From Christensenellales bacterium (lineage in GTDB: Bacteria; Bacillota; Clostridia; Christensenellales; UBA1431), in contig JAXGXY010000001.1 in the NCBI GenBank assembly GCA_040772545.1, forward strand, positions 4,993-68,992: 64,000 nucleotides of DNA. The letters run 5' to 3'. Below are positions 27,703 to 64,000 of this stretch, in pieces (position 1 is the stretch's first letter; each line of letters begins with the position of its first letter). The notes beneath the pieces were generated by a model, which saw only the letters and a program-made list of their open reading frames with translations, was not told the DNA's origin and ran no database searches. The position numbers were made by a program, and so were the translations under genes.

Positions 27703-27835
27703 CGAGGACTCCCCCCATAGTTTCATCTTCTATATCAAGGATAATCCCTGTAAATAATTTTTGCAGTAATGACTGACGCAATATAATCAACCGTTGCGTC
27801 ATGAAATGCGTTCTGATTTTTTGCAGATGAACTCC

Positions 27836-28435
27836 CTAAAACTTCCCCCTGAGTTCAACGACCTTCCCGTGTATGATAATGGGCAACTCCGCCATCTCTT
27901 TATATGTGAAGAATTTAGGTGAATAGGCCGTATTAAATGGAATAAGCGAAATGCCTTCTTCGTGTTTCGTTATTTTTTTGACTGTCGCATTGTAACCGTT
28001 CACATATACGACCGCGACATCGCCACTTTCGACATCAGGCTGCCGGCGAACGATCACGACGTCGCCTTCTTTGATTCGCGGCTCCATGCTGTCGCCCTGG
28101 ATCCTGAGAGCAAAGTATTCGCCACGGGCTGCAAGTTCTTCGGTGATCTCTTCGTAATCGATAATATCTTCAACAGCTTCGATAGGAACGCCGGCGGCAA
28201 TCACGCCGAGAACGGGTATTTTTACGCCTTTGCGTTTAGTGGTAGCATCATCACTTCCCAGAATATAATCAATAGACACTTCAAAATATTCAGACATTTT
28301 TTTAAGAACTGATATATCAGGTACAGTTCTATTTTTTTCCCATTGGCTTACAGCTGTCTGATGAACGTTTAATATTTCCGCTAGTTGTTTTTGGGATAAT
28401 TCTCGATTTTTTCTCAGTACCTTTATTTGATTCAA
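27836..28435 (-). CDS. CI/LexA-like repressor (XRE HTH plus S24 peptidase)
   Basis: HTH LSQKQLAEILNVHQTAVSQWEKN. The S24 domain has GDSMEPRI and a HGKVVEL-type Lys region. A TTG at 28435 preceded by GAAGGAAGG is the likely start; the maximal ORF reaches 28453. Confidence 0.85.
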   Translation of the reverse strand: MNQIKVLRKNRELSQKQLAEILNVHQTAVSQWEKNRTVPDISVLKKMSEYFEVSIDYILGSDDATTKRKGVKIPVLGVIAAGVPIEAVEDIIDYEEITEELAARGEYFALRIQGDSMEPRIKEGDVVIVRRQPDVESGDVAVVYVNGYNATVKKITKHEEGISLIPFNTAYSPKFFTYKEMAELPIIIHGKVVELRGKF

Positions 28436-28458
28436 AAAAACACCTTCCTTCAACCTCT

Positions 28459-48824: not shown

Positions 48825-49354
48825 TGGCGCGCACTATCGCGAGTAAGACCGTGGACATGTCGGTCGACGTGAAGTACAAGGGCAAGTACGAGATGCTCGA
48901 AGACGTGACGGCGTTCAGGCTCCCCGGCGTGGAGTACGGCGAAGGCGAGATCACCGGCGCCGGCCTTGCAGGGGCGTTCAACAAGCCTGATGTGTTCAAC
49001 ATCGGGCCGCTTGAGGCGTCCATCACATCAAGGTCATTGCAGGGCAGGTACGCTTCCGTGTTCGCCGCCGACGGCGTGCAGTTCCGCATCACGTGGGCGG
49101 TCGACAAGATCTCGACGACGAGCGCGGGGGCGTACGACACGTACATGGCCATCGTAAAAGGCCAGGCGTCAAAACTCCCGGAGATCGAAGTGAAGAAAGG
49201 CGAGCAAATGGAACTGGAGACGTCGATAGCCGCGTGGTACTACAAGCTGACAAGGAACGGCACGACGCTTTTCGAGTTTGACGTGCTGAACCAGGTTGTG
49301 GTGATCAACGGCGTGAACTACTCGGCCAAACTGAAAGCCGCTATGGGGAAGTAA
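48824..49354 (+). CDS. tail tube protein
   Basis: 176 aa, between the sheath and chaperone genes. Confidence 0.55.
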   Translation: MARTIASKTVDMSVDVKYKGKYEMLEDVTAFRLPGVEYGEGEITGAGLAGAFNKPDVFNIGPLEASITSRSLQGRYASVFAADGVQFRITWAVDKISTTSAGAYDTYMAIVKGQASKLPEIEVKKGEQMELETSIAAWYYKLTRNGTTLFEFDVLNQVVVINGVNYSAKLKAAMGK

Positions 49355-49363
49355 GGAGGAATC

Positions 49364-49702
49364 ATGGAAAAACTCAGGCTCATGAAGCCGTTCATGTATA
49401 ACGGCGAAAAGCTAACGGAGATCGAGTACGACCTCGAGTCGGTGACGCCTGCGCAGTACAAGGCGATCATCAAACGGCTTCAGAGAAAGGGGCATGCGGT
49501 GAACGTGCCCGAACTGGACGGAAGCGTTCAGCAGGAGTATTTCGCGGCGGCGACCGCGCTGCAGATACCCGCGACGGAGCTTAACAACCTGCACATCAGG
49601 GATTACATGCGGATGGAGCAGCTGGTCCGCGCTTTTTTCTTGACCGATTCGGACGGGGAGACGGAGACGGAGGAAACAGAGACGGAGGATACCTCCGGAT
49701 AA
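49364..49702 (+). CDS. tail assembly chaperone (short, G/E-like product)
   Basis: 112 aa with an acidic tail (ETETEETETED), immediately upstream of the tape measure gene. Confidence 0.65.
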   Translation: MEKLRLMKPFMYNGEKLTEIEYDLESVTPAQYKAIIKRLQRKGHAVNVPELDGSVQQEYFAAATALQIPATELNNLHIRDYMRMEQLVRAFFLTDSDGETETEETETEDTSG

Positions 49703-49884
49703 TCGAGCGGATCTGCGTACAGATCACGATGGACACGTCGACAAGCTACCCGGAGACGCAGGCAATGACGATCGGGGCGCTTCTTGATTTCTGGGACGTG
49801 CTCGTGGAAGTCACCAATATCCGGAGAGACATGCAGGAAAAGGAACTCGAAAGGCTTAGAAAGGAAAGCAGGAAGGGGGTCTGA
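49633..49884 (+). other. -1 programmed frameshift site (T TTT TTC) and extension frame giving the long chaperone (GT/E+E'-like)
   Basis: The heptamer at 49633-49639 is in X XXY YYZ register with the chaperone frame. The -1 frame is open from 49585 to TGA 49882-49884, which ends 3 nt before the tape measure GTG. Confidence 0.65.
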
Positions 49885-49887
49885 CCT

Positions 49888-51606
49888 GTGGCCAAAACGC
49901 TGGAAACACTGCTCAAGCTTAAAGGCAAGGTCGACCCCTCGCTGCAGCGCGCGCTGAAGCAGGCCAACAGCAAAACGGTGAGAGAGGCGCAGAAGACGTC
50001 GCGGAAGGTACAGTCGACGTTTGCCGGCATGGCGAAGAAAGCCGCTGCGTACATAGGGGCGGCGTTCGCTGTGCGTTCTATGGTCGATTTCGGGAAAGCG
50101 TCGATAGAGGCGGCACAGGACGAGGTCCTGGCTCAGACCAAATTGGCCGAGGTCATGCGTCAGCGCATGGGCGCGACCGAAGACCAGACCCAAAAAATAC
50201 TTGATTTGGCTTCCGCACAACAGAAACTGGGCGTCATCGGCGATGAGGTCCAGGTTGCAGGGGGGCAGCAGCTGGCCACCTTCCTGAACCAGACGTCTTC
50301 CCTTGAAAGCCTCATACCGGCCATGAACAACCTGGCTGCGCAGCAGAAGGGCGTTAACGCGACGCAGGAGGACATGGTCAATATAGCCAACCTTATGGGC
50401 AAGGCGATGCACGGGCAGACGGGCGCCCTGCGGCGCGTCGGGATCGTGTTTTCGGAGGCGGAGGAAGAGGTCCTCAAATACGGGAACGAGACCGAGCGCG
50501 CGGCAACGCTTGCGCAGGTGGTCACCAACAACGTCGGGAACATGAACGAGGAGCTGGCGAAGACCGACTTTGGTAAGTTCACACAGGCCAAAAACATTGT
50601 CAGCGACTTGCAGGAAACCGTCGGTAAACAGCTGATGCCTATCGTAGGGAATATTGCACAGAAGTTCCTGCCGCTTATCGAAAAAGGGTTTGTCTGGATA
50701 GGTTCCCTTATCGAAAAGCTTTCGCCGCTGCTCGGGAAACTTGCGGACCTGATCATGCCCGTTCTGGATACCCTCGGACAGCTCCTCGCAGAGGTCATTG
50801 AACCGCTTATCGAGCCTCTGACGGAGATCGCTGAAGCGATACTCCCCGTCCTCAGCACGGTCCTGGGCGCGATCATGGACGCCGTGAAACCCCTGCTCAA
50901 GGCGGGAATGAAGATCATCAACAGGCTCCTGCCCCCGCTTCTCAAACTGCTTGAGCCGCTGAACGACATCCTGCGGCTGGTGGGCGAGGCGGTCGGATGG
51001 GTGGCGGAGATGATCGGCGGGGTGCTTACGGAGGCGCTTAACGCTATCATGCCGGTCATAGAGCCGCTCCTCGACGGCCTCAGAGGCGTGATAGATTTCC
51101 TGGTAGGCGTGTTCGCGCTCGACTGGGAGAGGGCCTGGGAAGGCATCAAGGCCATTTTCGAGGGCATCTGGAACTCGCTGATCGGGATAGTCAGAGGCGT
51201 CATCAACGCGATCATCGGCATCCTCAACGCCATGGTGGAAGCGTACAACGTAACGATCGGGGAAGTCGGTGGGGTGCTCGGTATCAACATCAAGATCACG
51301 CCGATAGGGTATCTTGCCGAAGGTGCGACGGTGACCCGGCCGGCGCTGGCCGTGATCGGCGAAGCGGGGGCCGAGACCGTGGTACCGCACAATAACAAGC
51401 CGCGCTCGAGGATGCTCCTGCGCGAGGCGGCCGCCGGAGTGGGCATGGCTCTTGGCGGCAATACGTTCGTTTACCAGCCGAGGATCACGCTCCCCCCCGG
51501 CGCGGACAAAAAGGACTTCCAGCAGGTGCTGGACGACGATTTCGAGCGCTTCAAAAAGTGGATGGACCGGTACGCCGAAGAAGAAGGGAGGCTGGCGTTC
51601 GCATGA
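49888..51606 (+). CDS. tail tape measure protein
   Basis: 572 aa, Ala/Leu/Gly-rich and helical with repeated LxPL/IxPL blocks. The position is canonical. Confidence 0.8.
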   Translation: MAKTLETLLKLKGKVDPSLQRALKQANSKTVREAQKTSRKVQSTFAGMAKKAAAYIGAAFAVRSMVDFGKASIEAAQDEVLAQTKLAEVMRQRMGATEDQTQKILDLASAQQKLGVIGDEVQVAGGQQLATFLNQTSSLESLIPAMNNLAAQQKGVNATQEDMVNIANLMGKAMHGQTGALRRVGIVFSEAEEEVLKYGNETERAATLAQVVTNNVGNMNEELAKTDFGKFTQAKNIVSDLQETVGKQLMPIVGNIAQKFLPLIEKGFVWIGSLIEKLSPLLGKLADLIMPVLDTLGQLLAEVIEPLIEPLTEIAEAILPVLSTVLGAIMDAVKPLLKAGMKIINRLLPPLLKLLEPLNDILRLVGEAVGWVAEMIGGVLTEALNAIMPVIEPLLDGLRGVIDFLVGVFALDWERAWEGIKAIFEGIWNSLIGIVRGVINAIIGILNAMVEAYNVTIGEVGGVLGINIKITPIGYLAEGATVTRPALAVIGEAGAETVVPHNNKPRSRMLLREAAAGVGMALGGNTFVYQPRITLPPGADKKDFQQVLDDDFERFKKWMDRYAEEEGRLAFA

Positions 51607-51803
51607 CCGGATACATCGCGCAGATGGGCGATACGTGGGACCTGCTCTCTCTCGCGTTCTACGGGAGCGAGAAGCATGTGCTCCCGTTGATGCTGGCGAA
51701 CCCGGCCTACTCTGACACCGTGGTGTTCGAAGGCGGGGAAGTGCTGGCGGTCCCTGAGATCGAAACGGAGACGCCGGCCACGCTCCCGCCGTGGAGGCGC
51801 TGA
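51603..51803 (+). CDS. LysM-like tail protein X / XkdP-like
   Basis: MTGYIAQMGDTWDLLSLAFYGSE...VLAVPE is a LysM-type fold signature. ATGA overlap with the tape measure stop. Confidence 0.6.
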   Translation: MTGYIAQMGDTWDLLSLAFYGSEKHVLPLMLANPAYSDTVVFEGGEVLAVPEIETETPATLPPWRR

Positions 51804-51804
51804 C

Positions 51805-52734
51805 ATGATCGAGCTGATCTATGAGGGGAAGGATATCAACCTGGAAGCGGATGTCGCCGTCACCGGGTGCGTGTACACGGACTGCGTGCACGGCCGGGCG
51901 GACAGCGTGCGGATCGCGTTCTCGGACGCGCAAAAGCTCTGGCGGCTGTGGGCGCCACAGAAGGGCGACGCTTTCGAGGTGCGGCAGGGCGCCATACGGA
52001 GCGGGAAGATGTATGTCTCCAAACTGGCTGCGCGGGAGAACACGTTCGTACTGGCCGGCAGCGCCACGCCGCTTTCGGCGCTGGGCGCAGCGTCGGAGAG
52101 CTGGGAAAACATCCGGTTATCGGAGCTCGTATCGCGTATGGCGGCGCAGGTCGGCATGCGCGCGGAGCTTTCAGGCGTCCCGGACCGCCTGTACGCCCGG
52201 TTCGACCGCGTACGCAAGACGGTCCCGGCAGCGATTCAGTTCCTCTGCAGGCGGGAGTCGGCCGCGCTCAAGGCCTTCGACGGGCGGTTTCTCCTGCTGA
52301 ACGAAAGGAAACTCGAAGAGGCGGACCCGGTGGCCTGCCTGAAACCGGAAGACATGACGGCGCCCGAGTTCGGCACGTCGGACGCCGGTTTGATGCGCGA
52401 GGTCACGGTGCAGTACGTAGGCGCAGACGGCCAGATCACGGGCAGGTGGGCGGACGGGAGGATCGCCGGCGGGACCCTGGCCGTGGAGACGCCGGTCTCG
52501 TCGCAGGGCGAAGCGGAGCGGTTTGCCAAAGGTTTCCTTCGGGCGGCGAACCGGCGGGAAACGGCCGGAGCGGTCACGGTCCTCTATGACGACGGGATCG
52601 CCGCGGGGAACGTGGTCGAGATACAAAACTACGGCAGTTTTTCCGGGCGGTACTGCGTCGACAGCGTGCGGCACGACATGCTGAACCTGCGCATGCGCCT
52701 GGGCCTGCGTAAACCTATTCAGGGGGATTACTGA
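51805..52734 (+). CDS. late control D / XkdQ-like baseplate hub protein
   Basis: 309 aa, following the LysM protein as in PBSX/P2-like tail modules. Confidence 0.5.
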   Translation: MIELIYEGKDINLEADVAVTGCVYTDCVHGRADSVRIAFSDAQKLWRLWAPQKGDAFEVRQGAIRSGKMYVSKLAARENTFVLAGSATPLSALGAASESWENIRLSELVSRMAAQVGMRAELSGVPDRLYARFDRVRKTVPAAIQFLCRRESAALKAFDGRFLLLNERKLEEADPVACLKPEDMTAPEFGTSDAGLMREVTVQYVGADGQITGRWADGRIAGGTLAVETPVSSQGEAERFAKGFLRAANRRETAGAVTVLYDDGIAAGNVVEIQNYGSFSGRYCVDSVRHDMLNLRMRLGLRKPIQGDY

Positions 52735-53411
52735 TGGAACGCGGGATAGTGTCGGCGGTAAACGGGCGCCGGGCGCGCGTGAAGCGCCCGGACGGGTACG
52801 TCACCGGCTGGCTGTTTCTTGCTGACGCCGTCCTGTCGGCAAACGCGGGCGACATCGTTTTCTACGAGCCGTTCGGGAACGACGGGCTTATCCTGCATGC
52901 TGTGGGAGCGCCGGGTTTAGCGGATGTTTTTGCGCTGGCCAATGAGGTGCTGCCTTTATCCGGCGGTTCGCTTGCAGGGGATTTAGACATCAACGGGAAT
53001 GCGGTATGGCACACGGGGAACCTGTACCACGTCGAGTGGACGCCGTACCTCAGGGGAGTAAATGCAAACCCGTCGGTAACATACATCCGCCAGCGCGGAA
53101 TGGCGACAAAGATCGGGCCGCTCGTGGTTGCGCCGTTTGAGATCCTCACCGACACGGTAAGCGGCGGGTCCGGTCATGCATATATTCACGGGACGCCTTT
53201 CCCGGTGTATTCAGGACAGGCGGGGCTGCCCTACAGCGCGCTTGTATACAACGACGACATAACGGGCGTTACGGTAAATCAGATGGGCATCCACTGGAAC
53301 GGGTCGTACTGGATACTGACCTGGGGGACGGCGAGCGAGCGTCTGCAAGCAGATAACCTGCTTAACGGGTTCCACGTTTTCGGAACGCTCATATACCATA
53401 CGAGCGCCTAG
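52734..53411 (+). CDS. baseplate spike/assembly protein V-like
   Basis: N-terminal GIVSAVNGRRARVKRPDGYVTGWL resembles the gpV OB-fold start. Confidence 0.45.
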   Translation: MERGIVSAVNGRRARVKRPDGYVTGWLFLADAVLSANAGDIVFYEPFGNDGLILHAVGAPGLADVFALANEVLPLSGGSLAGDLDINGNAVWHTGNLYHVEWTPYLRGVNANPSVTYIRQRGMATKIGPLVVAPFEILTDTVSGGSGHAYIHGTPFPVYSGQAGLPYSALVYNDDITGVTVNQMGIHWNGSYWILTWGTASERLQADNLLNGFHVFGTLIYHTSA

Positions 53412-53423
53412 GAGGGCACCGGC

Positions 53424-53660
53424 ATGGATGAAAGAATCATATTAAACAAGCTGACCGACGACGAGGTAATCATAGAGCGGCAGCGGTATGTGGTTGATGA
53501 AGGTACGGAATACACGGTAGGCCCGCCGCACCTGTGCTGGTACCGAAACAGCGTACGCGGGCGCGCTGAGATCGCGTCGGCCGTATCGGGGAAGGACCTT
53601 GACGCTGTCCTTGCTAAGTGGGGACCCGAACCGACGGTGACCGAAGAAGCGGAGGAATAG
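53424..53660 (+). CDS. hypothetical phage protein
   Basis: 78-aa ORF within the baseplate module. Confidence 0.35.
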   Translation: MDERIILNKLTDDEVIIERQRYVVDEGTEYTVGPPHLCWYRNSVRGRAEIASAVSGKDLDAVLAKWGPEPTVTEEAEE

Positions 53661-53673
53661 GGGGTATGGCGGG

Positions 53674-54870
53674 ATGAGCGTAGCGTCCTGGGGCTCCAAA
53701 AAGTTCGACGCGAGTTCGAAGAAGGTCTACACCTTCGACGGGTTCACCAACAGCGCGGCGCTGAACCTCGAGTTCCAGGAAAACGAGGGCGGCAAGACGT
53801 TCACGGCGATCAAGGGGATCGACACGGAAAAAGTGGGCTTTTTGCTGAAACTGCACCGGGACTATGTGGACGTGGCCGCGGAGATCAAGAGCTGGAAGGC
53901 CCTGCTGGCCGCGAAAAAGCCGTACCCTCTCTACATCGGCAAGAAGAAGTACGGCAGCCTCCCGTGGCTGCTGGCGTCCGTGGATGTGAGCGAGGTAAGG
54001 ATCGGCCCGCACGGCGCCATGGTCAGCGCGGCGGTCGAACTGGGCTTTGAGGAAATTTACCAGCTGAAGCCCCCGACAAAAAACGCGCTTGGCGTTTCGC
54101 CGGGCGCCGGTTCCGCGGCCGGCACGAGGACGGCGGCAGGCTCCTCCGGCTCGTCTTCGGTCGGCGGGTCGAAACCGCAGGCATTAGACGACAGCGCGGC
54201 GAAGAGGGCTGCCGTAAACGCCATAAACGCCACGATCAAGGCCTATGACTATCTGGGGAGCAAGGGCGCTTCGTACAAAGAGGTGCTGCGCCGGCTTAAA
54301 GAGCTGGCCGATCTGATCGTCGGCAAGAAGTCGTGGACCTGGACGGAGGCAAAAACGACGCTGGTCAGCACGCTCACCAAACTGATATCGCAGTACCTGC
54401 TGTTCGCGCCGACGATTATACCGGGGCTTAAGGACCTGCTGGACAAATTCAAAAGCGGGTTCGGCGGCGCGGGCAGTTCGAGGACGTGGGATACGTCATC
54501 GTCGTCAAAGGTCGCGACGTTCCTCGAGTACGCGAGGCTCCAGCTGGGAAAACCCTATGTCCTCGGCGGGAAGGGGCCGGACGTGTTCGACTGCTCCGGC
54601 CTGGTGTACTACTGCCTCAGATGCACCGGCGTGAAAATCAGTTACATGACGTCGAGCGCCTGGGCCGTGAGTTCGTTTCCCCGCGTGAACAGCATAAGCG
54701 CCCTGAAGGCGGGCGACGTCGTCTGTTTCAGGGGGCATGTCGGGATCTACCGGGGCGACGGCACGATGATCGACGCCTCGTCCAGCCAGGGCAAGGTCAG
54801 GATCTCGTCGCCGCTTAAATCGGTGGCGTACTGGCGTAACAACTTTATCTGCGGACGCAGGGTGTTTTAG
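53674..54870 (+). CDS. tail-associated NlpC/P60 (C40) peptidoglycan endopeptidase
   Basis: The C-terminal FDCSGLVYYCL...GHVGIY...IDAS triad context (Cys-His-polar) is typical of NlpC/P60. Confidence 0.75.
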   Translation: MSVASWGSKKFDASSKKVYTFDGFTNSAALNLEFQENEGGKTFTAIKGIDTEKVGFLLKLHRDYVDVAAEIKSWKALLAAKKPYPLYIGKKKYGSLPWLLASVDVSEVRIGPHGAMVSAAVELGFEEIYQLKPPTKNALGVSPGAGSAAGTRTAAGSSGSSSVGGSKPQALDDSAAKRAAVNAINATIKAYDYLGSKGASYKEVLRRLKELADLIVGKKSWTWTEAKTTLVSTLTKLISQYLLFAPTIIPGLKDLLDKFKSGFGGAGSSRTWDTSSSSKVATFLEYARLQLGKPYVLGGKGPDVFDCSGLVYYCLRCTGVKISYMTSSAWAVSSFPRVNSISALKAGDVVCFRGHVGIYRGDGTMIDASSSQGKVRISSPLKSVAYWRNNFICGRRVF

Positions 54871-54883
54871 GGGTGAAAATGCT

Positions 54884-55186
54884 ATGGCCTACACGGTAGC
54901 GTCTTCGGACGCTTTTTCTTATGGCGCGGGCTCCGAGAAAGAGCGCGTACTTAAAAACTGCGCAAACCTCCTCTCGCTGACGTGGGGGGAGGTAATGGGC
55001 GACAGGACGCTCGGGCTGGACCCGCGCCTGATCGACCGCCCGGCCGAACAGGTGCGCTCGGAGCTTACCTCGTACGTCACCGGGATGCTGCAGGAGCGCG
55101 AGCCGCGGGCAGAGGTGTCCGACGTCCTGATAGAGACCTCTGCAACGGGAGAGATGGAAGTAAAGGTGGTGCTGGAGGTTGCGTGA
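54884..55186 (+). CDS. baseplate wedge protein gp25/gpW-like
   Basis: 100 aa, upstream of the J-like gene. Contains the GEVMGDRTLGLD pattern. Confidence 0.55.
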   Translation: MAYTVASSDAFSYGAGSEKERVLKNCANLLSLTWGEVMGDRTLGLDPRLIDRPAEQVRSELTSYVTGMLQEREPRAEVSDVLIETSATGEMEVKVVLEVA

Positions 55187-56273
55187 TTTCCTCGAAACGG
55201 ACGCGGAAAAGCTGCAGGAGGACGCCGTCAGGGAGTTCGAAGCCGCTGCAGGGGAAGCACTTTACGCGGGCGACGAGCGGCGAATCCTCATCAATACGAT
55301 GGCGGGGCTGGCCGCGGTGGCGCTCGGCCACCTGAACAGGCTCCTGAACATGGACTTTCCGCAGCACGCCGAAGGCGAATACCTCGACGAACTCGGGGCC
55401 GCAAGGGGCGTCGAGCGGATGCAGGCGCAGTACGCCGCCGTGACGCTGGAATATACGCTGAGCGCGGCGCAGGCTTCGGACGTCACGATACCCGCGGGCA
55501 CGCGCGCCACGCCCGACGGAATGTGTTTCTTCGCGACGGTCCGGGACCTCGTGATCCCGGTAGGGGAGCTTTCCGATACCGTTACCGCGGAAGCTACTGT
55601 CGCGGGCAGCGCGTTCAACGGGTTCGATATCGGGACGATCAGCCAACAGGTGGACCTGGTGCCGTTCGTGGCGTCGGTGAGCAATACGGACGCGTCCCAG
55701 GGCGGCGCGGAGACGGAGGACGACGAATCGTACCGCAAGCGCATAACGCTCTCTCTTGCATCCTACAGCGCGGCGGGGTCCGAGCTGTCGTACATCTACT
55801 GGACGCATTCGGCCGACAGCACGATCGCCGACGTGGCGGTGCACAGCCCGCAGGCAGGCGAGGTCGTCGTCACTGTCTTGCTCGAAGACGGGCAGGCGCC
55901 CGGGCAGGCCGTCCTCGACCGCGTCGAAGACATGCTCTCGGCGCGCAGCGTGCGGCCCCTGACCGACCAGGTGACGGTGCAGGCGCCTGTGGAAGTGCCA
56001 TACACCATTGATGCCACGTACTACATCGACAGCGCCGCGCAGGCCGAGGAAGCGGATATCCGGCAGGCTGTCGAAGCCGCCGTCGACGAGTACGTGTCCT
56101 GGCAGAGAGCTGTGCTTGGCCGGCACCTCAACCCGGACGCACTGGTCCAGCGGATGCTCAACGCCGGCGCGTCCCGGGTCGTGGTCGCAGCGCCTGTTTT
56201 CGCTGAACTCGGCCCGGACGAGCTGGCGGTGTTGTCCGGAGATGCGTCGGTCACATACGGAGGGCTGGTGTAA
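55179..56273 (+). CDS. baseplate J-like protein
   Basis: 364 aa. Order and size fit the gp47/gpJ family. Confidence 0.6.
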   Translation: MRDFLETDAEKLQEDAVREFEAAAGEALYAGDERRILINTMAGLAAVALGHLNRLLNMDFPQHAEGEYLDELGAARGVERMQAQYAAVTLEYTLSAAQASDVTIPAGTRATPDGMCFFATVRDLVIPVGELSDTVTAEATVAGSAFNGFDIGTISQQVDLVPFVASVSNTDASQGGAETEDDESYRKRITLSLASYSAAGSELSYIYWTHSADSTIADVAVHSPQAGEVVVTVLLEDGQAPGQAVLDRVEDMLSARSVRPLTDQVTVQAPVEVPYTIDATYYIDSAAQAEEADIRQAVEAAVDEYVSWQRAVLGRHLNPDALVQRMLNAGASRVVVAAPVFAELGPDELAVLSGDASVTYGGLV

Positions 56274-56833
56274 TGACAATCTCGGAGGTCTCTTTCCTGG
56301 ACATGGTCCCCCGGCTGTTCCGCGGGGACCGCACGGTGCGGGGGACAGCCGCCGCCTGCGACACGCTGCTGCGGACGCTTCTCTCGAAGGGGGCGATGCT
56401 GCCGCTCTGGACGCGGATCGATGAGCAGCCGGAATACATACTGGACGAGATGGCCGCGGCGCTGAACCTTCTCTGGTATGACCGCGGCGCGACCCTTGCA
56501 CAGAAACGTGCCATAGTAAGCAGCGCGGAGAAGGTGTACCGCCAGCTGGGCACGCCGGCGGCCGTGCGGCAGGTGGCGGAGGACTACTTCGGGCCCGCTG
56601 CGGTGGAGGAATGGTGGGAATACGGCGGGGATCCGGGGCATTTCCGCATCAGAATACAGGCGCAGAGCCTGACGCAGGACCAGATCGACATGTTCACGAA
56701 AAAGGTCCGGTGGGTAAAACGCGCGTCCGCATGGCTTGATTCGATCACCGCGGAGGAGCCGCTTATGACCACGCTGCGCGCGGGCGGCGCCTACCACGAA
56801 GCAGGAACGGACAATCTTAGGGAAGGAGCCTGA
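56273..56833 (+). CDS. tail protein I-like (baseplate)
   Basis: 186 aa. The LDEMAAALNLLWYD pattern is typical of P2 gpI-like proteins. Confidence 0.55.
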   Translation: MTISEVSFLDMVPRLFRGDRTVRGTAAACDTLLRTLLSKGAMLPLWTRIDEQPEYILDEMAAALNLLWYDRGATLAQKRAIVSSAEKVYRQLGTPAAVRQVAEDYFGPAAVEEWWEYGGDPGHFRIRIQAQSLTQDQIDMFTKKVRWVKRASAWLDSITAEEPLMTTLRAGGAYHEAGTDNLREGA

Positions 56834-56836
56834 TCC

Positions 56837-57553
56837 ATGGCTACATTCGGACAGCTGACAATCACGAACGCAGGGCTTGCGCTGTTGGCCAAGGCACAGA
56901 CCGGGACGGCGGTGCAGTTCACGCGACTGGCCATAGGCGACGGGGAACCGGGGGCAACGGACCCCGCCACGCTCACGGCGCTGGTGAACCGCCTGCAGTG
57001 GGTGACGATCAGCTCGATCACCCGGGACGGGACGAACGTGACGGCCGCCGGGACGTTCAACAACCAGGGCGCGACAGAATCCTTTTACTTCCGCGAGATC
57101 GGGTTGTTTGCTCAGGATCCGCAGGAAGGCGAAATCCTCTACGCGTACGGCAACGCAGGGGAGACGGCCGACGAGATCCCTGCCGAGGGCAGCCAGGTCA
57201 TCGAGCGCACGGTCAGCATCACGACGGTGCTATCGACGGAGATCGCGCTGACTGTGGAACTGGTTTCCGGAGCGTACCTTCTGGCATCCGAGTACACGGC
57301 CGGGGATATTCTTGAAAAGCTCAAAACGGTGGACGGGAACGGCAGCGGCCTGGATGCGGATATGTTGGAAGGCTGTCACGGCGCGGATACCGGGAGCGCG
57401 AACAAGCACGTCGTGCTGTCGACGCCTGACGGAACGGTAAAGGTGTACAAGCTGCAGGTAGGCGGCTCGACAGTAATTCCACGTATCTATGTACAGACAA
57501 CGAACCCGGGTTCGGTACCTGAAGGCTCTCTCTGGATCAAACCGAAGGCGTAA
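56837..57553 (+). CDS. tail-collar/tail fibre protein
   Basis: The N-terminus ITNAGLALLAKAQTGTAVQFTRLAIGDGE is typical of the tail-collar fibre N-domain (DUF3751-like). Confidence 0.6.
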   Translation: MATFGQLTITNAGLALLAKAQTGTAVQFTRLAIGDGEPGATDPATLTALVNRLQWVTISSITRDGTNVTAAGTFNNQGATESFYFREIGLFAQDPQEGEILYAYGNAGETADEIPAEGSQVIERTVSITTVLSTEIALTVELVSGAYLLASEYTAGDILEKLKTVDGNGSGLDADMLEGCHGADTGSANKHVVLSTPDGTVKVYKLQVGGSTVIPRIYVQTTNPGSVPEGSLWIKPKA

Positions 57554-57566
57554 GGGGGTGTAACCT

Positions 57567-58979
57567 GTGGCGGACCTTGCCGGCACCTATGCCGCATTGA
57601 CGTCCCCGAGCGGCGCGACGTACATGGCGCTGAACTACACGCTGATTTCCCGCTCCCGTATCCGCGTCTACGGCAATATCCACCTGGGGAGCGCGACGTC
57701 ATGCGGTACGGCCGAGGAACGTACGATGCGGATTGTCATTAACGGAACAACTAAGAACTATGTTGTAAAACCGACCGGGACGAACTGGGGACCGAACTCC
57801 AACCATCCGTTTGATTACACGTTCGACTTCAACGATGCCACATCAGGCACGGAACCGGCCAGGGTTTATGTGCTGGCCACCGAGACGTACCACAGCAGCC
57901 CGAGCGTGACGTTTGATACAGGGAGCCGCACTATAACCGTTCCTTCGAGTATGCTTAGACCCGGACAGGGTTCCCAGCCTTCGGTCAGCCCGTCGAGTTA
58001 CCCTGAAGACGATATCACGATCTCCTGGGCCGCGACGCCCTATGCCACAGCGTACTACGTGGACTATTACGACGGCTCCTGGCACAGGCTCAGGGCGACG
58101 TCTGCGCGGTCAATATCAGCTTCCCTTGCGGCGATAGCTTCCCGCGGAGAGACGATCGGGTTTGCAATCAACCCGTACAACAGCTACGGCAGCGGGGGCA
58201 GGTCGCCTACAAGGTACGTCACGCGGAACCGGGCGCCCAACAAACTGGCGACCGCGCCGACGCCCAACCACACGCTGATAGAGCCTGGGACAACCATACG
58301 GCTGTCCTTCAATAACGCAGGTGACCCGGACGGCAACCTTGCCGGGTACGAGGCGGCCATGAAAGACGCCGCCGGGGAGTGGCACAAAAACGGGAAGATC
58401 GTTGGAAGCCGGTCAGGTTCCAGTATCACGTACCTGGATGTCGACACAACCGGCTGGATACGGGGAAATCGGTGGCGGTTCTATGTGCGCGGGTACGACA
58501 GCAGAGGGATCAGGGGGTCCTGGAGCTCAGCGTCCGCATATGTGAAAATCAACAGCGCACCGCCGGCGCCCTCGTCAATCACGGTCAGCCCCTCGCCGTT
58601 CGAGAAATCGCTGACGGTATCATGGCCGTCCGTGACGGACCCTGACGGGAACCTTGATTACTATCAACTGCAACGGCGGATCGCCAACGACGGCGTTAAC
58701 TGGGGCGACTGGGCGACCGTGCGCACGCAGACATCAAGGTCATGGACGGAGGAACCGCCGGTGAACGACGGCGGGCTGGTGCAGTACCGCGTGCGTGCTG
58801 TCGACAAGCTTGACCAGGTATCGTCGTACAAGACGTCCGCGCAGGTAAAGCGCGAGGACGGTTCCGGGCTGAAGGTCCGGCAGGGCGGGGCGTGGGTGAA
58901 GACAGACATTTTCGTGGGGGGCGTGAAACACGAAGTGTTTGTCAGACAGGGGGGTGGATGGGTCGAAGCAGAGAAATAA
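57567..58979 (+). CDS. distal tail fibre / receptor-binding protein with FN3-like repeats
   Basis: 470 aa with a GTG start. Repeated ~90-aa segments contain W...Y..Y/YRVRA patterns. Confidence 0.5.
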   Translation: MADLAGTYAALTSPSGATYMALNYTLISRSRIRVYGNIHLGSATSCGTAEERTMRIVINGTTKNYVVKPTGTNWGPNSNHPFDYTFDFNDATSGTEPARVYVLATETYHSSPSVTFDTGSRTITVPSSMLRPGQGSQPSVSPSSYPEDDITISWAATPYATAYYVDYYDGSWHRLRATSARSISASLAAIASRGETIGFAINPYNSYGSGGRSPTRYVTRNRAPNKLATAPTPNHTLIEPGTTIRLSFNNAGDPDGNLAGYEAAMKDAAGEWHKNGKIVGSRSGSSITYLDVDTTGWIRGNRWRFYVRGYDSRGIRGSWSSASAYVKINSAPPAPSSITVSPSPFEKSLTVSWPSVTDPDGNLDYYQLQRRIANDGVNWGDWATVRTQTSRSWTEEPPVNDGGLVQYRVRAVDKLDQVSSYKTSAQVKREDGSGLKVRQGGAWVKTDIFVGGVKHEVFVRQGGGWVEAEK

Positions 58980-58990
58980 ATATGGCACAC

Positions 58991-59016
58991 GGCCGCCTTC
59001 GGGCGGCTTTCGTTTT
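58991..59016 (+). terminator. rho-independent terminator after the tail fibre gene
   Basis: GCCGCC-TTCG-GGCGGC hairpin followed by TTTCGTTTT. Confidence 0.7.
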
Positions 59017-59033
59017 GCGGAAAGGAGAGGGAG

Positions 59034-59174
59034 ATGGCACCAACTATCGTTGATCTGAAACTGAGCTTCAGGGGCGCGCTGGTGAAGCGCGCGGCTACGC
59101 AGATGATCGTGCTGCACCATCTGGCCGGCAACGCCTCTGTGAAAGCCGTCCATGCGTACCATCTGGAACGATAG
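59034..59174 (+). pseudogene. 5' fragment (46 codons) of an N-acetylmuramoyl-L-alanine amidase (Amidase_2) endolysin
   Basis: SD AAAGGAGAGGGAG precedes the ATG. MAPTIVDLKLSFRGALVKRAATQMIVLHHLAGNASVKAVHAYHLER* matches amidase_2 N-termini up to the H..H..(R)GW.GIGYH block. It then hits TAG exactly where the composition changes. Confidence 0.75.
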
Positions 59175-59213
59175 GCTCACCTCGATGTCTGGTCTGTATT
59201 TTCCGTTTTGCTC

Positions 59214-59304
59214 GTTCGCGGGAATAGGTCAATAGTGGATTTAATGGGTACTATCGGTTCGCGGGAACAGTTCAACAGTTGTTATCCGTTCGCGGGAATA
59301 AGTC
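59214..59304 (+). repeat. three direct 17-bp repeats GTTCGCGGGAAYAGKTC at the island's left junction
   Basis: Copies at 59214-59230, 59257-59273 and 59288-59304. Each contains a TTC-N4-GAA dyad, and flanking bases are partly conserved (T..GTTCGCGGGAA.A..TCAA.AG). Confidence 0.8.
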
Positions 59305-59337
59305 GAGATATGGTTAAAAATACCTCAAAGCTTGGAT

Positions 59338-60672
59338 TCATAGGATCTTATTTTGTGCAAATGATTTTAACAAGTCAGCACTTGGATGATCTGCAAGAGA
59401 AACCAGTTTATTTGCTAAAACAATTGGCACAAGTGAGTTGTAATATAAATCACATTTTAATGCTGTAATATTGGACAGAATTACATGAATATTGATATAA
59501 TTTTCCATTTGCGGTTCTGCCAGTGCTTGGGTATTAGGGATTGTTGCTACATACACATTGCTATGTTCAGATTTAAAAATAAGCTTATGGCCATAATAGG
59601 AAGAGCTTGCATATGGTTCGTTGTTTCTCGCTTGTCCAGGAATAATATATTTGTAAATATATCTGTTCCCAAGTAACAAGATTTGTTTCGGGATCATTTT
59701 TTTCGACACTTGCTCAGCATGCTCAACAAACGAACCACCCTTTTCGAGACCAACAATATATATGGTATGATATCTATTCAAATAAGTGATTAGCTTTCGC
59801 ATAGGTTTGTGAATATTCGCAGTTTGACCAAAGAAGGCAAGTGGCCCGTCTTTTATAAATAAAGTCTCGGACAAAAGGCTTGGTTTTATAGAAAGCATTT
59901 GTTTTATTAGAAAAACAGCTATAATTTGCTCTACTGTTGTCGATAGGTAGCCTAGGATTCCTCCGGCACCAAGCTCATTATCAATAGCTTCATGAAGACG
60001 AAATATGTCGGTGAGATATATCTTTCCACTGCAATGCGGACATGTGATAGTGTATGTAGATGAAAGGTCTTTTGCCCGAATATCAACCCCTTCGTTGCAA
60101 GAAGGACAAGTTGCTAAATGCCAAATAACATTTTGAGATGAAGAATTGTACTCTTCAAAAATGAGCCACTTCAATGCATCAATAAACCCATTACGTTCTG
60201 GTTGGGTACAGAAGAAGTCATAAATGGATTTTCTAACCGAACTAATAAGATCAGCTTCACCGTCAAGAGTAATACCCTTCGTTGGTACAACCAACTTAAT
60301 CCGCTGAATGTTTTGAAGCTTTGAGAAATCGTCAGGGTCAATAAAGGGCTTGATTTTTAAATCAATTAAATCTTGATGTTTAAAAAATAGCGCGCCAAAT
60401 TGGAAAAATGCAATGGTGGATGATGGGAATTCTTCCTTTACAAAAACGTTGGTATAGCCACCATCAATAGCTATAATATTTTTAATCGGATTATGAACAA
60501 CCTCTTCAAGCATATGAATTTCTATGTCAGCATCATCGACATCATCCTGATAGGGAGGGACTTTACACTTTGAAAGAAAAGATTGCACCTCGGCGTCATT
60601 GATTATATTCGTATGTGCTGTTTTACTCGCTCTTTCAAATGGTTTGTTTGAATAGTCATTTCCATAGCTCAT
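59338..60672 (-). CDS. NurA-like nuclease with an inserted zinc ribbon
   Basis: ATG 60672 lies 4 nt after the HerA stop, with AAGGAG inside the HerA 3' end. NurA-type motifs are IIAIDGGYT and LFIKDGPLAFFG, and the GLEKGGSFVEH block is present. CPSC...CPHC forms an inserted Zn ribbon. Confidence 0.65.
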   Translation of the reverse strand: MSYGNDYSNKPFERASKTAHTNIINDAEVQSFLSKCKVPPYQDDVDDADIEIHMLEEVVHNPIKNIIAIDGGYTNVFVKEEFPSSTIAFFQFGALFFKHQDLIDLKIKPFIDPDDFSKLQNIQRIKLVVPTKGITLDGEADLISSVRKSIYDFFCTQPERNGFIDALKWLIFEEYNSSSQNVIWHLATCPSCNEGVDIRAKDLSSTYTITCPHCSGKIYLTDIFRLHEAIDNELGAGGILGYLSTTVEQIIAVFLIKQMLSIKPSLLSETLFIKDGPLAFFGQTANIHKPMRKLITYLNRYHTIYIVGLEKGGSFVEHAEQVSKKMIPKQILLLGNRYIYKYIIPGQARNNEPYASSSYYGHKLIFKSEHSNVYVATIPNTQALAEPQMENYINIHVILSNITALKCDLYYNSLVPIVLANKLVSLADHPSADLLKSFAQNKIL

Positions 60673-60676
60673 ATAA

Positions 60677-62680
60677 TCAATCTCCTTGTGCAGTAAATCT
60701 GTCAACTTGTACGGGAACAATAAAAGCATTAGAGTATGTTTTCATACGAATAAATCCTTTATCACTCCCGGAACTGTATCGGATTAAACTATCACAAAAG
60801 TCCTCAAAATCGTAAAACTTTTTGATTTCCTTTAATTCATCATCATTGTTTAGATGAGCGATAAACCAGTTTTGAGTGTTCTTTAATATATTAGATGAAA
60901 TGGAACTAACTTCTTGTGTAGCATAAATAAGTCCGATATTTAATTTTGCACCTTCTTTGGCTATACGATTATATACTCGGCTCAAATCCTTATCATCCTT
61001 TTGAGGAAACAAGTTATGTGCTTCTTCAAAGTAAAACTGAATAAAGTTATTCGGGCGATTGTTAACAAAATTATCCATAGAATTTCTAAAGACGCTTAAA
61101 CAGATTTTTTCTGCAAATGTTTTTTGAATGTTAGGATCACCCTGAGATAAATCAATAATTACGATATCTCCACGTCTAAGACAGTTGACGATATCAGTTT
61201 CAAAGGATGTATCAGATTGTATAGTATGATAATCTTTCAGTGGTACCAGCTTTCTAAAACCACTTAGACTAGCAACACCAGACAAATTACGCTTTCTAGT
61301 CAAGAACACCAAAAGAGCCTTCAAATCCTCATCTACCCAGTCATGGCCTTTTTGTGAGCGATAGTTTACAAAAAACGGATCATCTTGGTTATCCGCTACC
61401 CATGTCCAAAATGCAAGTGCATCATCGAGGCTTATTCCGCTAGAAGGATCAAGTGTCTTCCCTGACATTATTTTGCTATTAATATCTCTATGTCCAGAAA
61501 ACTTAACTTTGTGATTTTTCGGAACTATAAAGCCTGCGGCCTTTAAACAGCATTGATAAACTGCTACCTTACGTGCCCACCTAGTATACGCTGAACCGAA
61601 TTTATCTTCTGGTTCTTCAAAATCAACAGAAATAAAGCTCTTAATATAATCGCCGGTTTCGTCTGCAAGTAAACTGCTTATTAATTCATACCCAACAGCA
61701 ATATCCTTAAAAAAGTTTACCTTTAATACCTTGAAACCAGGTTTATCAAGAACACTGTATCGTGTTGTAATACTTGAGTATTTTTCAAATATAGCGGTTC
61801 CTTCATCTTGTAAATTCGCATTTGCGTATTCACCATTCATGTCAAAGATAATCTGCCCGACTTTATATTTTGGAATTCCTTCATCATTAAATTGCTTGAC
61901 ATTATCAATAGGAGAGGTTGTTGATGCATTAGTACATATCTCTTTAGCTTTATTGCTTATTTCTGTTGTAGCTTCAATAATCTTCTTTACAGTATTTGAT
62001 TTACCGGTTCTTGTCATTCCAAAAAGAGCTGTCCGCTTTCCAAGAAAGTCGCTGGGACTAACATAAACGGGGACATCTGTGTGTGCTTCTTGAAAACGAC
62101 GGCTTGAACTGTACCTTATCTTACCGATTCGATAATCAGTTGTACTTCCAACAGATGTATTTCCATCTCTAAAATTAACTATTTGTTCCAGTATTTCTCC
62201 TACTGGTTTGTAAGCAACATAATTATGCGCGCTATAGTAGTTTTCAACATCAGCTCCGAATTGAATTTTTCCATTGCTATCACGGAAAAATGTTCCCAAA
62301 ATACGGCATTCAAGTCCTGAGAAGCTGAATGTGTATTTTGTAAAGTCATCAAGTTGACTTTTTTTGCCCGATGTCTTCAAGTTGTCCTTATAGTACTCTA
62401 CCATAGAAGCAATAACATCGTTATCAGTTGGTAGTTTCGCTGGCTTAATTGCTCTTAGCAAAAGACATTCATCAACATCATCATTTTCGTTTTCATAGAA
62501 AGCAAGAATAAAGGTACCTTGAGGAATACCGCCTACCCTTTCTTTCCACGCGTCTGTTATCAGCAGATATGCTTTATCAAAATCGAGGTAAAATGGTCTT
62601 CCGACGAACAAATCGGGCTTTTTAGCTTCTTTAAAAATATCTACTATTGCCAGGTTTTGTACTTCTTGCATCAGTCCCAT
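60677..62680 (-). CDS. HerA/DUF87-type (FtsK-HerA superfamily) ATPase
   Basis: 667 aa. Walker A LFGMTRTGKSNT (aa 219-230), Walker B-like FYFEEAHNLFP, and the later blocks GLIYATQEVSSIS and NWFIAHLNN are typical of the DUF87/HerA core. Confidence 0.75.
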   Translation of the reverse strand: MGLMQEVQNLAIVDIFKEAKKPDLFVGRPFYLDFDKAYLLITDAWKERVGGIPQGTFILAFYENENDDVDECLLLRAIKPAKLPTDNDVIASMVEYYKDNLKTSGKKSQLDDFTKYTFSFSGLECRILGTFFRDSNGKIQFGADVENYYSAHNYVAYKPVGEILEQIVNFRDGNTSVGSTTDYRIGKIRYSSSRRFQEAHTDVPVYVSPSDFLGKRTALFGMTRTGKSNTVKKIIEATTEISNKAKEICTNASTTSPIDNVKQFNDEGIPKYKVGQIIFDMNGEYANANLQDEGTAIFEKYSSITTRYSVLDKPGFKVLKVNFFKDIAVGYELISSLLADETGDYIKSFISVDFEEPEDKFGSAYTRWARKVAVYQCCLKAAGFIVPKNHKVKFSGHRDINSKIMSGKTLDPSSGISLDDALAFWTWVADNQDDPFFVNYRSQKGHDWVDEDLKALLVFLTRKRNLSGVASLSGFRKLVPLKDYHTIQSDTSFETDIVNCLRRGDIVIIDLSQGDPNIQKTFAEKICLSVFRNSMDNFVNNRPNNFIQFYFEEAHNLFPQKDDKDLSRVYNRIAKEGAKLNIGLIYATQEVSSISSNILKNTQNWFIAHLNNDDELKEIKKFYDFEDFCDSLIRYSSGSDKGFIRMKTYSNAFIVPVQVDRFTAQGD

Positions 62681-62685
62681 ATTTA

Positions 62686-63693
62686 TTATTCCTCCGTTTT
62701 TATTTTTGCTTTTAATGAAGGCTCCTCAAAACGAATCATAGACTGCTTTCCGTAATCTTCGTTAGCCTCAATGCTAATCCATTTGCGTTTTGCTCTTTCG
62801 GCACAAAATCCGGTTGTGTTGCTTCCTCCAAATGGGTCAAGAACAATATCGCCTTCATCTGTAAGAAATTCAATAAAAAAACTCGCTAATTCAAGAGGCA
62901 TTCGTGCAGGATGCGGTGTTATTCCACGTTGCTTACATGTTTTTGTAAAAAAATCATTTGATTTGGTGTTTGAAATACTAAACATTGAATATGGAAGGCG
63001 TAATTCTTTATTTTCATCAATTTGTTCCAATTCTAGTACATTGTGCGATATACTTCCTTTGTTATCAGATAAAAATCCTTTTTCACTAATAACATGTTCA
63101 GACGGCCGCTTCCCAGAATTGAATTTTCCAGATTTCAAAAGCCGCTTCATGCTCTTGCTATACGGTCGTAAAACTCTGCGGTTATCTGCTTTGGGAAAAT
63201 CAGAATTTGCCATCCACCAAATGTGAGTAAAGCTGTCAATTGCACGTATTCGATTAATCGTAACCCATTGAGCAGGTGATGGTAACCTTGCTGGATTATA
63301 GCAAACAAATTCTTGACATAATCTCAAGCCAGCTCGTTCGTTATTAACGAAACTTAAAAGAGAATTAATAGTAAGAAGTGACTGCACAGGCCGGTTCTTT
63401 TCCCATGCATTCCCCATTTCTATTACAATCGATCCATCTGGAGTCAGCACACTGGATAATATTTCCGCGAGCCCGCTAAACCATTGCAAATAATCATCAC
63501 CAGTTAAATTTCCGTATTGCTTTTTATTGTTTAGAGGAAATGGGGGAGATGTCAAGATAAGCTGTACTTTACCTTTAAGGTTCAGACGGCCTATTGTTTC
63601 TTCGCATTTTCCTATGTAATATTTCCCGTAATCAGTGCTATAAAGCTGATTATACATACGCATCCATCCTTTACTGTTATCGTTTTTCCGCAA
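62686..63693 (-). CDS. beta-class N4-cytosine/N6-adenine DNA methyltransferase (SPPF catalytic motif)
   Basis: Motif IV LILTSPPFP is N-terminal and motif I VLDPFGGSNTTG is C-terminal, which is the beta permutation. SPPF favours m4C. The maximal ORF starts at TTG 63693; ATG 63663 or 63657 are likelier starts. Confidence 0.85.
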   Translation of the reverse strand: MRKNDNSKGWMRMYNQLYSTDYGKYYIGKCEETIGRLNLKGKVQLILTSPPFPLNNKKQYGNLTGDDYLQWFSGLAEILSSVLTPDGSIVIEMGNAWEKNRPVQSLLTINSLLSFVNNERAGLRLCQEFVCYNPARLPSPAQWVTINRIRAIDSFTHIWWMANSDFPKADNRRVLRPYSKSMKRLLKSGKFNSGKRPSEHVISEKGFLSDNKGSISHNVLELEQIDENKELRLPYSMFSISNTKSNDFFTKTCKQRGITPHPARMPLELASFFIEFLTDEGDIVLDPFGGSNTTGFCAERAKRKWISIEANEDYGKQSMIRFEEPSLKAKIKTEE

Positions 63694-63719
63694 ATACCAG
63701 CAGATGATCTAAACACCTA

Positions 63720-63743
63720 AAACTCGCACATTGGTGCGAGTTT
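63720..63743 (-). terminator. hairpin between the edge gene and the methyltransferase operon
   Basis: 10-bp stem AAACTCGCAC/GTGCGAGTTT with a 4-nt loop. On the minus strand it is followed by TAGGTGTTTAG, a weak U tract. Confidence 0.4.
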
Positions 63744-63751
63744 AGCATGTG

Positions 63752-64000
63752 TCAATCTAACAGCGAACCTTGCGGAGCAAGTGAGTTCGGCTTAAGAATA
63801 TGTGATTTCATTATTTGGCTTCCAGCATACATCTTGTATTCGATGCCGCTATGAACTGCCATGATAGTTGCGGCTTCCGCTTTTGCTTTTACGACTGCAT
63901 CGTCTATTTTATCGTCGCCCTTTACCTCAATAAGCTGATATGAGCCGTCAGCCATCTCTGCAAAGAAGTCGGGGTAGTAGAGGCGGATGCGCCGTGACTC
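63752..64000 (-). CDS. C-terminal PD-(D/E)xK nuclease domain of a larger protein (gene runs off the right edge)
   Basis: The frame stays open upstream of the listed Met to base 64000: ...ESRRIRLYYPDFFAEMADGSYQLIEVKGDDKIDDAVVKAKAEAA... The YxPDF...EVKG pattern is seen at the C-termini of Res-type helicase-nucleases and in TnsA-like endonucleases. Confidence 0.55.
   Translation of the reverse strand, partial: ESRRIRLYYPDFFAEMADGSYQLIEVKGDDKIDDAVVKAKAEAATIMAVHSGIEYKMYAGSQIMKSHILKPNSLAPQGSLLD

Follow-up and report, generated by a model that had tools for sequence, protein, structure and literature searches.

The window, the whole stretch of 64,000 nucleotides analysed here, carries a prophage (prophage 1) whose structural genes extend from the integrase and repressor side rightward as far as a tail-fibre-like gene, which is followed by a truncated endolysin ORF and a recombination junction. 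The features of this part of the locus are the following:

26403-26494, plus strand: tRNA-Ser(GGA), identified by ARAGORN, the left attachment site of prophage 1
26605-27726, minus strand: tyrosine integrase of prophage 1, adjoining the tRNA-Ser
27836-28453, minus strand: S24/HTH repressor of prophage 1
53674-54870: tail lysin with GpU-like and NLPC_P60 domains (Pfam), intact
57567-58979, plus strand: tail-fibre-like gene, the final intact gene of prophage 1 ahead of the lysis cassette
59034-59174, plus strand: truncated Amidase_2 endolysin ORF, with 44 native codons followed by E, R and TAG from the element
59164-59165: recombination junction (TG), where prophage and element share T 59164 and the intact gene is left at 59165

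The ORF at 59034-59174, to which a sequence-only reading of the window had ascribed a strong Shine-Dalgarno sequence, exists with the translation reported there and is preceded by a ribosome-binding region containing AAGGAG/GGGAG. Its assignment to the N-terminus of an Amidase_2-type endolysin was borne out by the nearest intact relative, a 258-kb metagenome contig (L120) that carries the same prophage with 92-94% nucleotide identity over window positions 47900-59164. Residues 1-44 of the L120 amidase (MAPTIVDLKLSFRGALVKRAATQMIVLHHLAGNASVKAVHAYHL) are identical to those of the window ORF, and past residue 44 the L120 protein continues with TRLHKGIDYNF to a total of 319 aa, comprising Amidase_2 at residues 21-145 and PG_binding_1 at 257-313. 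In the window the native part consists of residues 1-44 only, leaving both the catalytic and the cell-wall-binding domains incomplete, and a Pfam search with the 46-aa product detected neither Amidase_2 nor any other domain. The 3' side of the L120 amidase gene is occupied by a Phage_holin_4_1 protein and then a 107-aa membrane protein, and a more distant relative (L013) has an Amidase_2 protein of 275 aa together with two membrane proteins of small size. The tail-fibre protein of the window shares 90% amino acid identity with that of L120 and 68% with that of L013, the intact amidase gene being next in both, and by the gene order fibre, amidase, holin the truncated ORF holds the position expected of the endolysin after the tail-fibre gene.

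Alignment with a prophage lacking the AT-rich island, as proposed in the earlier reading, fixed the junction at 59164/59165. The DNA of the window and of L120 is identical through ...GCGTACCATCT, beyond which the window reads GGAACGATAG... and L120 reads AACCAGGCTGCAC..., the native amidase continuing from codon 45 on as ACCAGGCTGCACAAGGGC... / ACCAGGCTGCACAAGGGCATCGAC.... The last base belonging to the prophage only is 59163 and the first belonging to the element only is 59165. The proposed truncation of the endolysin is therefore real, but it falls after 44 rather than 46 codons, given that E45, R46 and the TAG stem from the element, R46 being equal to the native residue by chance. At the crossover L120 has TA, not TG, and the identity of the ancestral central dinucleotide is taken here as an assumption. 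Two other accounts, namely a short ORF conserved in related phages and a full amidase hidden by a sequencing or assembly error at 59170-59175, are ruled out because similarity to the intact gene stops completely at the junction, without a frame shift; both L120 and L013 carry a full-length amidase, followed in L120 by the holin.

The sharp compositional break noticed at this point was reproduced by sliding-window analysis, GC content falling from about 0.60 to about 0.31-0.40 just downstream. In 200-nt windows it is 0.54-0.71 over the 9 kb left of the ORF, 0.58 at 59000-59199, 0.515 at 59100-59299, 0.41 at 59200-59399 and 0.305 at 59300-59499; further right it stays at 0.31-0.44 up to 63899 and reaches 0.47 in the final 200 nt. 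As the outermost ~150 nt of the element are of intermediate GC content, the steep drop begins about 100 nt past the junction. Such an abrupt change could arise from an assembly chimera, in which a prophage contig of 60% GC and an element contig of 35-45% GC were joined artificially, and the exact 46-aa junction ORF is indeed absent from the public gene collection. However, the two partners share 1 nt only and hence offer no repeat to mislead an assembler, and the break falls on the biological crossover point of the element described below, which by chance would be expected with a probability of about 1 in thousands; we regard an artificial join as very unlikely.

As had been remarked from the sequence, neither a holin nor an attR copy is visible to the right of the ORF: a tblastn search of the whole window with the intact lysis proteins (amidase, holin and the 107-aa transmembrane protein) recovered only amidase residues 1-46, and no repeat of the tRNA-Ser 3' end was found at 58900-64000. 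The same reading was also right in describing the NlpC/P60 lysin at 53674-54870 as intact. In L120, no copy of the tRNA-Ser attR was found within 10 kb, and the region right after the holins (L120 13200-16500) is likewise AT-rich (GC 0.34-0.45) and codes for a mutator-type transposase as well as a DUF6575 protein. At its lysis end, this prophage lineage seems to take up foreign DNA again and again. A GC-rich hairpin (GGCCGCCTTCGGGCGGC) followed by TTTCGTTTT, also kept in L120, separates the fibre gene from the start of the amidase gene at 58990-59018 and looks like an intrinsic terminator directly 5' of the lysis cassette.

Attachment arm of the inserted element

Window positions 59164-64000 are 99.2-99.7% identical in at least eight independent metagenome contigs that encode the exact HerA protein of the window (the L016-L024 set), and all 8 of these lose identity at window position 59164, give or take a few nucleotides; therefore, the junction is where a discrete and widely spread unit genuinely ends. 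Its last ~150 bp consist of TGGAACGATAG... and three repeats, with the following features:

59165-59191, plus strand: P' half-site of the attachment site (GGAACGATAGGCTCACCTCGATGTCTG), whose GATGTC is matched in inverted form by the GACATC of the other arm
59214-59236, minus strand: repeat 1, reading IDLFPRT on the minus strand, a relic of rumA VDMFPxT, the attB body-side half-site
59257-59279, minus strand: repeat 2, reading VELFPRT on the minus strand
59288-59310, minus strand: repeat 3, reading LDLFPRT on the minus strand

These three direct repeats of about 23 nt lie right after the stop codon of the truncated ORF, and all of them encode xD/ELFPRT on the minus strand, matching the rumA half-site GGGAAACATATCCAC (VDMFP). 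The other arm of the family reads ...CCCTTGACATCAATAC(C/T)ACCGTCTCAAC(G/A)TG. GACATC and GATGTC lie at -24 to -19 and +19 to +24 around the TG, respectively, forming a dyad-symmetric site with the breakpoint at its centre. The same breakpoint is used in the window, in the L016-L024 set, and in three contigs (L129, L140 and L150) compared with the related locus L004.

A core pattern built on the window copy together with five viral ones matched 88 further stretches, from species-representative genomes (L032-L119) nearly all labelled Bacillota or Clostridia. The arm is also present in 5 viral contigs, the phage PV036457 and 4 plasmids; the whole terminal arm at 59164-59306 gave an nhmmer E-value of 9.7e-39. 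The exact 23-mer of the repeat had no match among viral contigs, but the degenerate pattern did match. Diverged copies of the arm share about 80-86% identity and have different neighbours, and the number, order and rough spacing of the rumA-relic repeats are kept in most of the ~100 diverged copies examined.

Past the third repeat, at about +150 to +190 from the crossover, many copies contain a T-arm/acceptor-like motif (GGGTTCAAGTCCTGTCATCTCCGG and variants; for instance at 8140-8175 of L001 and 6570-6605 of L004), which received no call from ARAGORN or Rfam; the window copy has lost it or has a degenerate form. In the 88 loci the genes flanking the arm show strong co-orientation: the strand opposite to the arm as written holds 109 of the 119 ORFs found towards the cargo and 89 of the 118 found on the side away from it.

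Strong conservation of a non-coding sequence, the T-arm-like motif that follows it in many copies, the co-orientation of flanking genes (109 of the 119 right-flank ORFs on one strand) and the location of the module between resistance or defence cassettes in plasmids could all be reconciled with a structured non-coding RNA or an integron-attC-like cassette site of about 150-200 bp instead of a serine-recombinase attachment arm. We find this reading very improbable, given that Rfam 15 produced no relevant match at window 58900-59500 and none in 9 loci with complete modules, that the sequence is explained by rumA coding relics, that the breakpoints are at the centre of the dyad and not at the base of a hairpin, and that only one tyrosine recombinase was found near 93 copies with a XerD seed of limited sensitivity. 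Three further candidates for the module were rejected. A tmRNA 3' half or another tRNA-like structure was negative in both Rfam and ARAGORN; a tyrosine-integrase attP with arm-type sites was discarded on that count, one tyrosine recombinase found near the 93 copies with the same seed; and an integron-like cassette or a resolvase res site, which had been considered in view of the co-orientation and of the arrangement of site I, spacer and direct repeats, was superseded by the recognition of the rumA tail and of the half-site relics.

The conservation of the three half-site relics in number, order and rough spacing leaves some room for the idea, which we hold to be doubtful, that they are not scars but act as accessory binding sites for the paired serine recombinases, in a res-like architecture that large serine integrases are not known to need. 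If the idea were true, the relics could govern the direction of recombination or turn the arm into a place where more elements may land, tandem modules being present in L038, L049 and L093, and, combined with reversible integration, they would render the lysis of prophage 1 conditional on excision of the nested element.

rumA target and paired serine recombinases of the element family

Two loci (L004 and L016) have a large serine recombinase (LSR) 1.4 kb from the attachment module, and it was from loci centred on that LSR that the rumA clue was obtained. From the recombinase, across a GGDEF cargo gene and as far as the left arm, L129, L140 and L150 match L004 at 99% identity, and they part from it at the same T/G step. 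The recombinase cassette encodes proteins of 519, 138 and 522 aa in L004 and of 440, 143 and 524 aa in PV036457, the two large proteins of each consisting of Resolvase, Recombinase and Zn_ribbon_recom domains with the gene of ~140 aa between them. An LSR was seen in 16 of 93 arm-containing loci, which are mostly 8-kb blocks, and its position varies.

Beyond the junction, L140 and L176 carry a rumA-type 3' region on the opposite strand, and reading through the junction gives VDMFPWTA/HVECVVLMSRV (the slash marking the crossover). In an automatic screen, 9 of 80 LSR-centred loci, L140 and L176 among them, had a rumA-type C-terminus (...VDMFPxTxHVETVVLMSRVEGK and stop) on the opposite strand just downstream of the LSR, and all three full-length ORFs tested (L173, L187 and L206) matched PF05958. 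The left arm, CCCTTGACATCAATACCACCGTCTCAACGTG, is the reverse complement of HVETVVLMSR plus a terminator and so is a replacement rumA tail carried by the element. Of the 98 evaluable right-arm junctions, 76 have a flank encoding H[VIL]E... on the minus strand. The family normally recombines with the 3' end of rumA/rlmCD, the gene of a 23S rRNA m5U methyltransferase, its other arm providing a replacement tail (HVETVVLMSRVEGK and stop).

These results bear on the possibility that the element is a DDE-type transposon, Tn7-like or Mu-like, whose left end with three transposase-binding repeats was transposed into the amidase gene. The left end of a Tn7-like element has repeats abutting a TGT terminus, such elements encode tnsA/B/C genes, and their insertion generates a 5-bp target duplication. 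In the window there are three ~23-nt direct repeats within 150 bp of an end that begins with TG, a weak TnsA-like N-domain match at 63752-63955 (E = 0.009), and defence cargo beside the end, an arrangement shared with Tn7-like elements; the insertion sites are also diverse. On the other hand, the TnsA-like domain belongs to an 884-aa ResIII protein of the defence operon and no tnsB/tnsC is present; the terminus is TGG rather than TGT, and the first repeat lies 50 nt from the tip. Moreover, the repeats are rumA coding relics, the 76 of 98 copies that abut a rumA tail indicate a site-specific target, the end forms a dyad with the other arm that has the breakpoint at its centre, and the site is accompanied by paired serine recombinases, not by DDE transposases. 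Transposition of this type is accordingly given very little credence here.

In Firmicutes, rumA-targeting elements with serine integrases have been documented among streptococcal ICEs and in C. difficile CTn5, as have insertions of such elements at secondary sites within protein-coding genes; CTn5 occupies rumA in 630 delta-erm but an adhesin gene in strain 630 (PMC4701971). The family described here agrees with these elements, which include the C. difficile CTn5/Tn1549 family, in the LSR, in the rumA 3' target, in the exchange of C-terminal coding sequence on integration and in occasional insertions at secondary sites in protein-coding genes (PMC4701971), but it differs from them in several respects: it has a pair of recombinases with a small gene between, its attachment site lies 1.4-12 kb from the recombinases with cargo in between and not inside the integrase gene, its P' arm bears three rumA half-site relics, and its backbone is phage-like (cI/Cro switch, polA, primase) rather than conjugative, PV036457 having full virion genes.

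By description, the family may also be likened to SCCmec/SCC, which has paired LSRs (CcrA/CcrB), integrates into rlmH, which encodes an rRNA methyltransferase, at the 3' end and with the frame kept, forms tandem arrays and carries resistance and defence cargo, although the target is rlmH instead of rumA, the attachment sequences are other ones and SCC elements are not phages. The phage IMGVR 15682261 (PV036457.1, Ca. Heliusvirales, from human faeces) shares the attachment module at ~82% identity, the LSR-small-LSR cassette, and defence cargo (Type I RM, TA and methyltransferase) on both sides of the module, whereas its other cargo differs and its backbone is weakly related to the inferred continuation of the window element. 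The Heliusvirales paper (PMC11283538) makes no statement on integrase or attachment sites. For a paired-LSR family that is widespread in Clostridia and includes a Ca. Heliusvirales gut phage, the analysis thus establishes rumA as the primary target and defines where attachment and crossover take place.

Proposed integration of the element into the amidase gene

No rumA gene is present in the window, where the arm abuts the amidase gene. The reading that we favour, with a probability of roughly 70%, is that an element of the rumA-targeting LSR family integrated at a secondary site within the amidase gene, the connection of this copy to an LSR being drawn from its relatives; the event is considered off-target because the normal target of the element is rumA. 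Prophage 1 is integrated at the tRNA-Ser via its tyrosine integrase and its endolysin gene is split at codon 44 by one end of a second element, the reaction being presumably catalysed by an LSR of the element. The junction in the window is of the attL type, containing the P' (attL-side) arm of the site used by the family, which is made up of a half-site (TG/GAACGATAGGCTCACCTCGATGTC), an A/T-rich spacer and the three relics of the rumA body-side half-site, and the same crossover nucleotide is joined here to the amidase gene in place of rumA. The 3' part of the amidase gene would be expected at the far end of the element, and prophage 1 would be unable to lyse and may be locked in. As a simple integration, the event would in principle be reversible, with precise excision restoring the amidase.

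The rival that deserves most attention is replacement instead of simple insertion, according to which the element first integrated nearby, for example in the host rumA, and a later deletion or rearrangement at the attachment crossover removed the 3' part of the amidase gene, the holins, attR and host DNA. This would agree with the lack of any amidase remainder, holin or attR in the visible 4.8 kb of the element, with the poor match of the amidase site to attB, and with the foreign AT-rich DNA and transposase found past the holins of L120, which imply that this prophage end is prone to rearrangement. Nevertheless, a junction at the crossover nucleotide that is used in about 100 other contexts is the product expected of integration between attP and a pseudo-attB, and the 59 kb left of the junction are devoid of rumA. 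For a deletion, moreover, attL and a pseudo-site would have to serve as substrates of the recombinase, which is mechanistically less natural and not what serine integrases normally do. Replacement is for these reasons judged unlikely.

Scored with a position weight matrix, the reconstructed amidase target showed a weak likeness to the natural attB, ranking 328 of 6908 TG sites (top 4.7%); in the right half, the distal ATCGAC agreed best. Targeting of the amidase gene in particular was rejected, as the other atypical insertion contexts hit unrelated genes (a GH38-like N-terminus in L018, a ferredoxin-like gene and other ORFs), and our view is that the element entered the lysis gene by accident, at a secondary site, and does not target lysis genes. 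Elements mobilized by serine recombinases are known to split genes that precise excision restores, as do phi10403S in comK of Listeria, SPbeta in spsM of B. subtilis and skin in sigK; in those cases, however, the split gene is a conserved, selected target, whereas the amidase is one of about 22 atypical contexts and bears poor likeness to attB, and a programmed switch is therefore unlikely here.

The locus provides a case, resolved at the base pair, in which one mobile element disables the lysis gene of another: an element laden with defence genes, >99% identical in many metagenomes, has cost the prophage its endolysin and, locally at least, the holin. Events of this kind are one route to the immobilisation of prophages and to the presence of defence islands 'inside' prophages. 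As a single off-target insertion, it is a fairly ordinary case of an element within an element, and the general picture is unchanged.

Cargo and continuation of the element

The genes that follow the arm in the window all lie on the minus strand:

59338-60729, minus strand: first cargo gene, an ORF of 463 aa (444 aa in other contigs) without a family match
60677-62680, minus strand: HerA/DUF87 ATPase, the exact protein being present in 157 blocks of the public assembly collection
62686-63693, minus strand: N6/N4 DNA methyltransferase
63752-64000, minus strand: 3' end of an 884-aa ResIII + TnsA-like-N nuclease/helicase, which runs off the window

Beyond the window the cargo was read from relatives that are 94-99% identical (L025), a different genome. 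Inward from the junction, the minus-strand order is the 444-aa protein, HerA, the N6/N4 methyltransferase, the ResIII/TnsA-like protein, a second methyltransferase, a UvrD/PD-(D/E)xK protein and a small HTH protein, after which come, divergently oriented, an AAA ATPase and S8 peptidase pair identified by PADLOC as IetA/IetS, and then an HTH_3 repressor and a Cro-like gene that face each other, with GGAACCTAnnGGTTCC palindromic operators between the two. Past this switch, L025 encodes a SNF2 helicase, a family-A DNA polymerase (polA) and a primase-polymerase. The ~17.3 kb from the junction to the immunity switch are the highly conserved part, and contigs tend to break at the switch.

The AT-rich DNA had initially been taken for an island of cargo, with a defence operon, gained by the prophage. 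This interpretation gives way to one in which the region is the attachment arm and left arm of an independent element of LSR type, since the arm is conserved and the near-identical copies contain an immunity switch of their own and phage replication genes. If the element continues in this genome as it does in its relatives, its defence-rich arm would lead through the IetAS pair and a cI/Cro-like switch to phage replication genes, and to judge from this gene content it is probably a second temperate phage or prophage, or a phage-like element, nested in the first.

Window positions 59338-64000 together with L025 1-13403 form a dense defence island, 94-99% conserved across many metagenomes, that includes two N6/N4 methyltransferases and a GajB-like UvrD/PD-(D/E)xK protein; the multi-gene set of methyltransferase, HerA and helicase matched no single PADLOC system. 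A partial island, 99.5% identical to window 59709-63815, occurs in a 23-Mb record (L015; GCA_900198705.1, FZPS01000029.1), where the methyltransferase, HerA and part of the 444-aa gene adjoin a Type I RM system, a group-II-intron-like RT and a DDE transposase. Exact-protein searches of the public collection found no match for the window methyltransferase, the tail fibre or a 238-aa protein; likewise, the tail fibre had no match in genome contigs and the AAA ATPase none in viral contigs.

Across the family, the cargo side of the arm is enriched in defence genes, including CBASS AGS_C/SLATT, JetD, BrxL, Type I RM, AbiEii and HNH. On an E. faecalis plasmid (L127; LR962441.1), an Enterococcus multiresistance plasmid, two copies of the attachment-arm family (at about 8915-9160 and 11430-11560) adjoin the aminoglycoside resistance genes apmA and spw, each copy consisting of a rumA-tail-like left half, the half-site GGCTCGAG...GATGTC and the GGGAACATATCCAC relics. 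Together with the attachment site, crossover point and target defined above, these relics help to delimit such elements in genome annotation. Similar relics lie on a P. acidaminophilum megaplasmid (L128, about 9001-9140), between a Type I RM system and a nucleotidyltransferase and HNH pair.

Two attachment modules are arranged in tandem, about 200 bp apart, in L038, L049 and L093, and in five other loci (L042, L082, L098, L101 and L109) the arm is joined to an inverted rumA-like half-site (GATATGTTCC-N11-TG) that is preceded by a conserved AATAATTAAAAAGTGTGGCAAAATTAAAAGG block. Judged by their layout, both arrangements suggest integration into attachment-like sites of other elements. Finally, two arms in the same orientation, 27-56 kb apart, occur on single contigs of A. 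elongatum (NZ_FNID01000010) and on JAEZYU010000061 and QKJV01000098.
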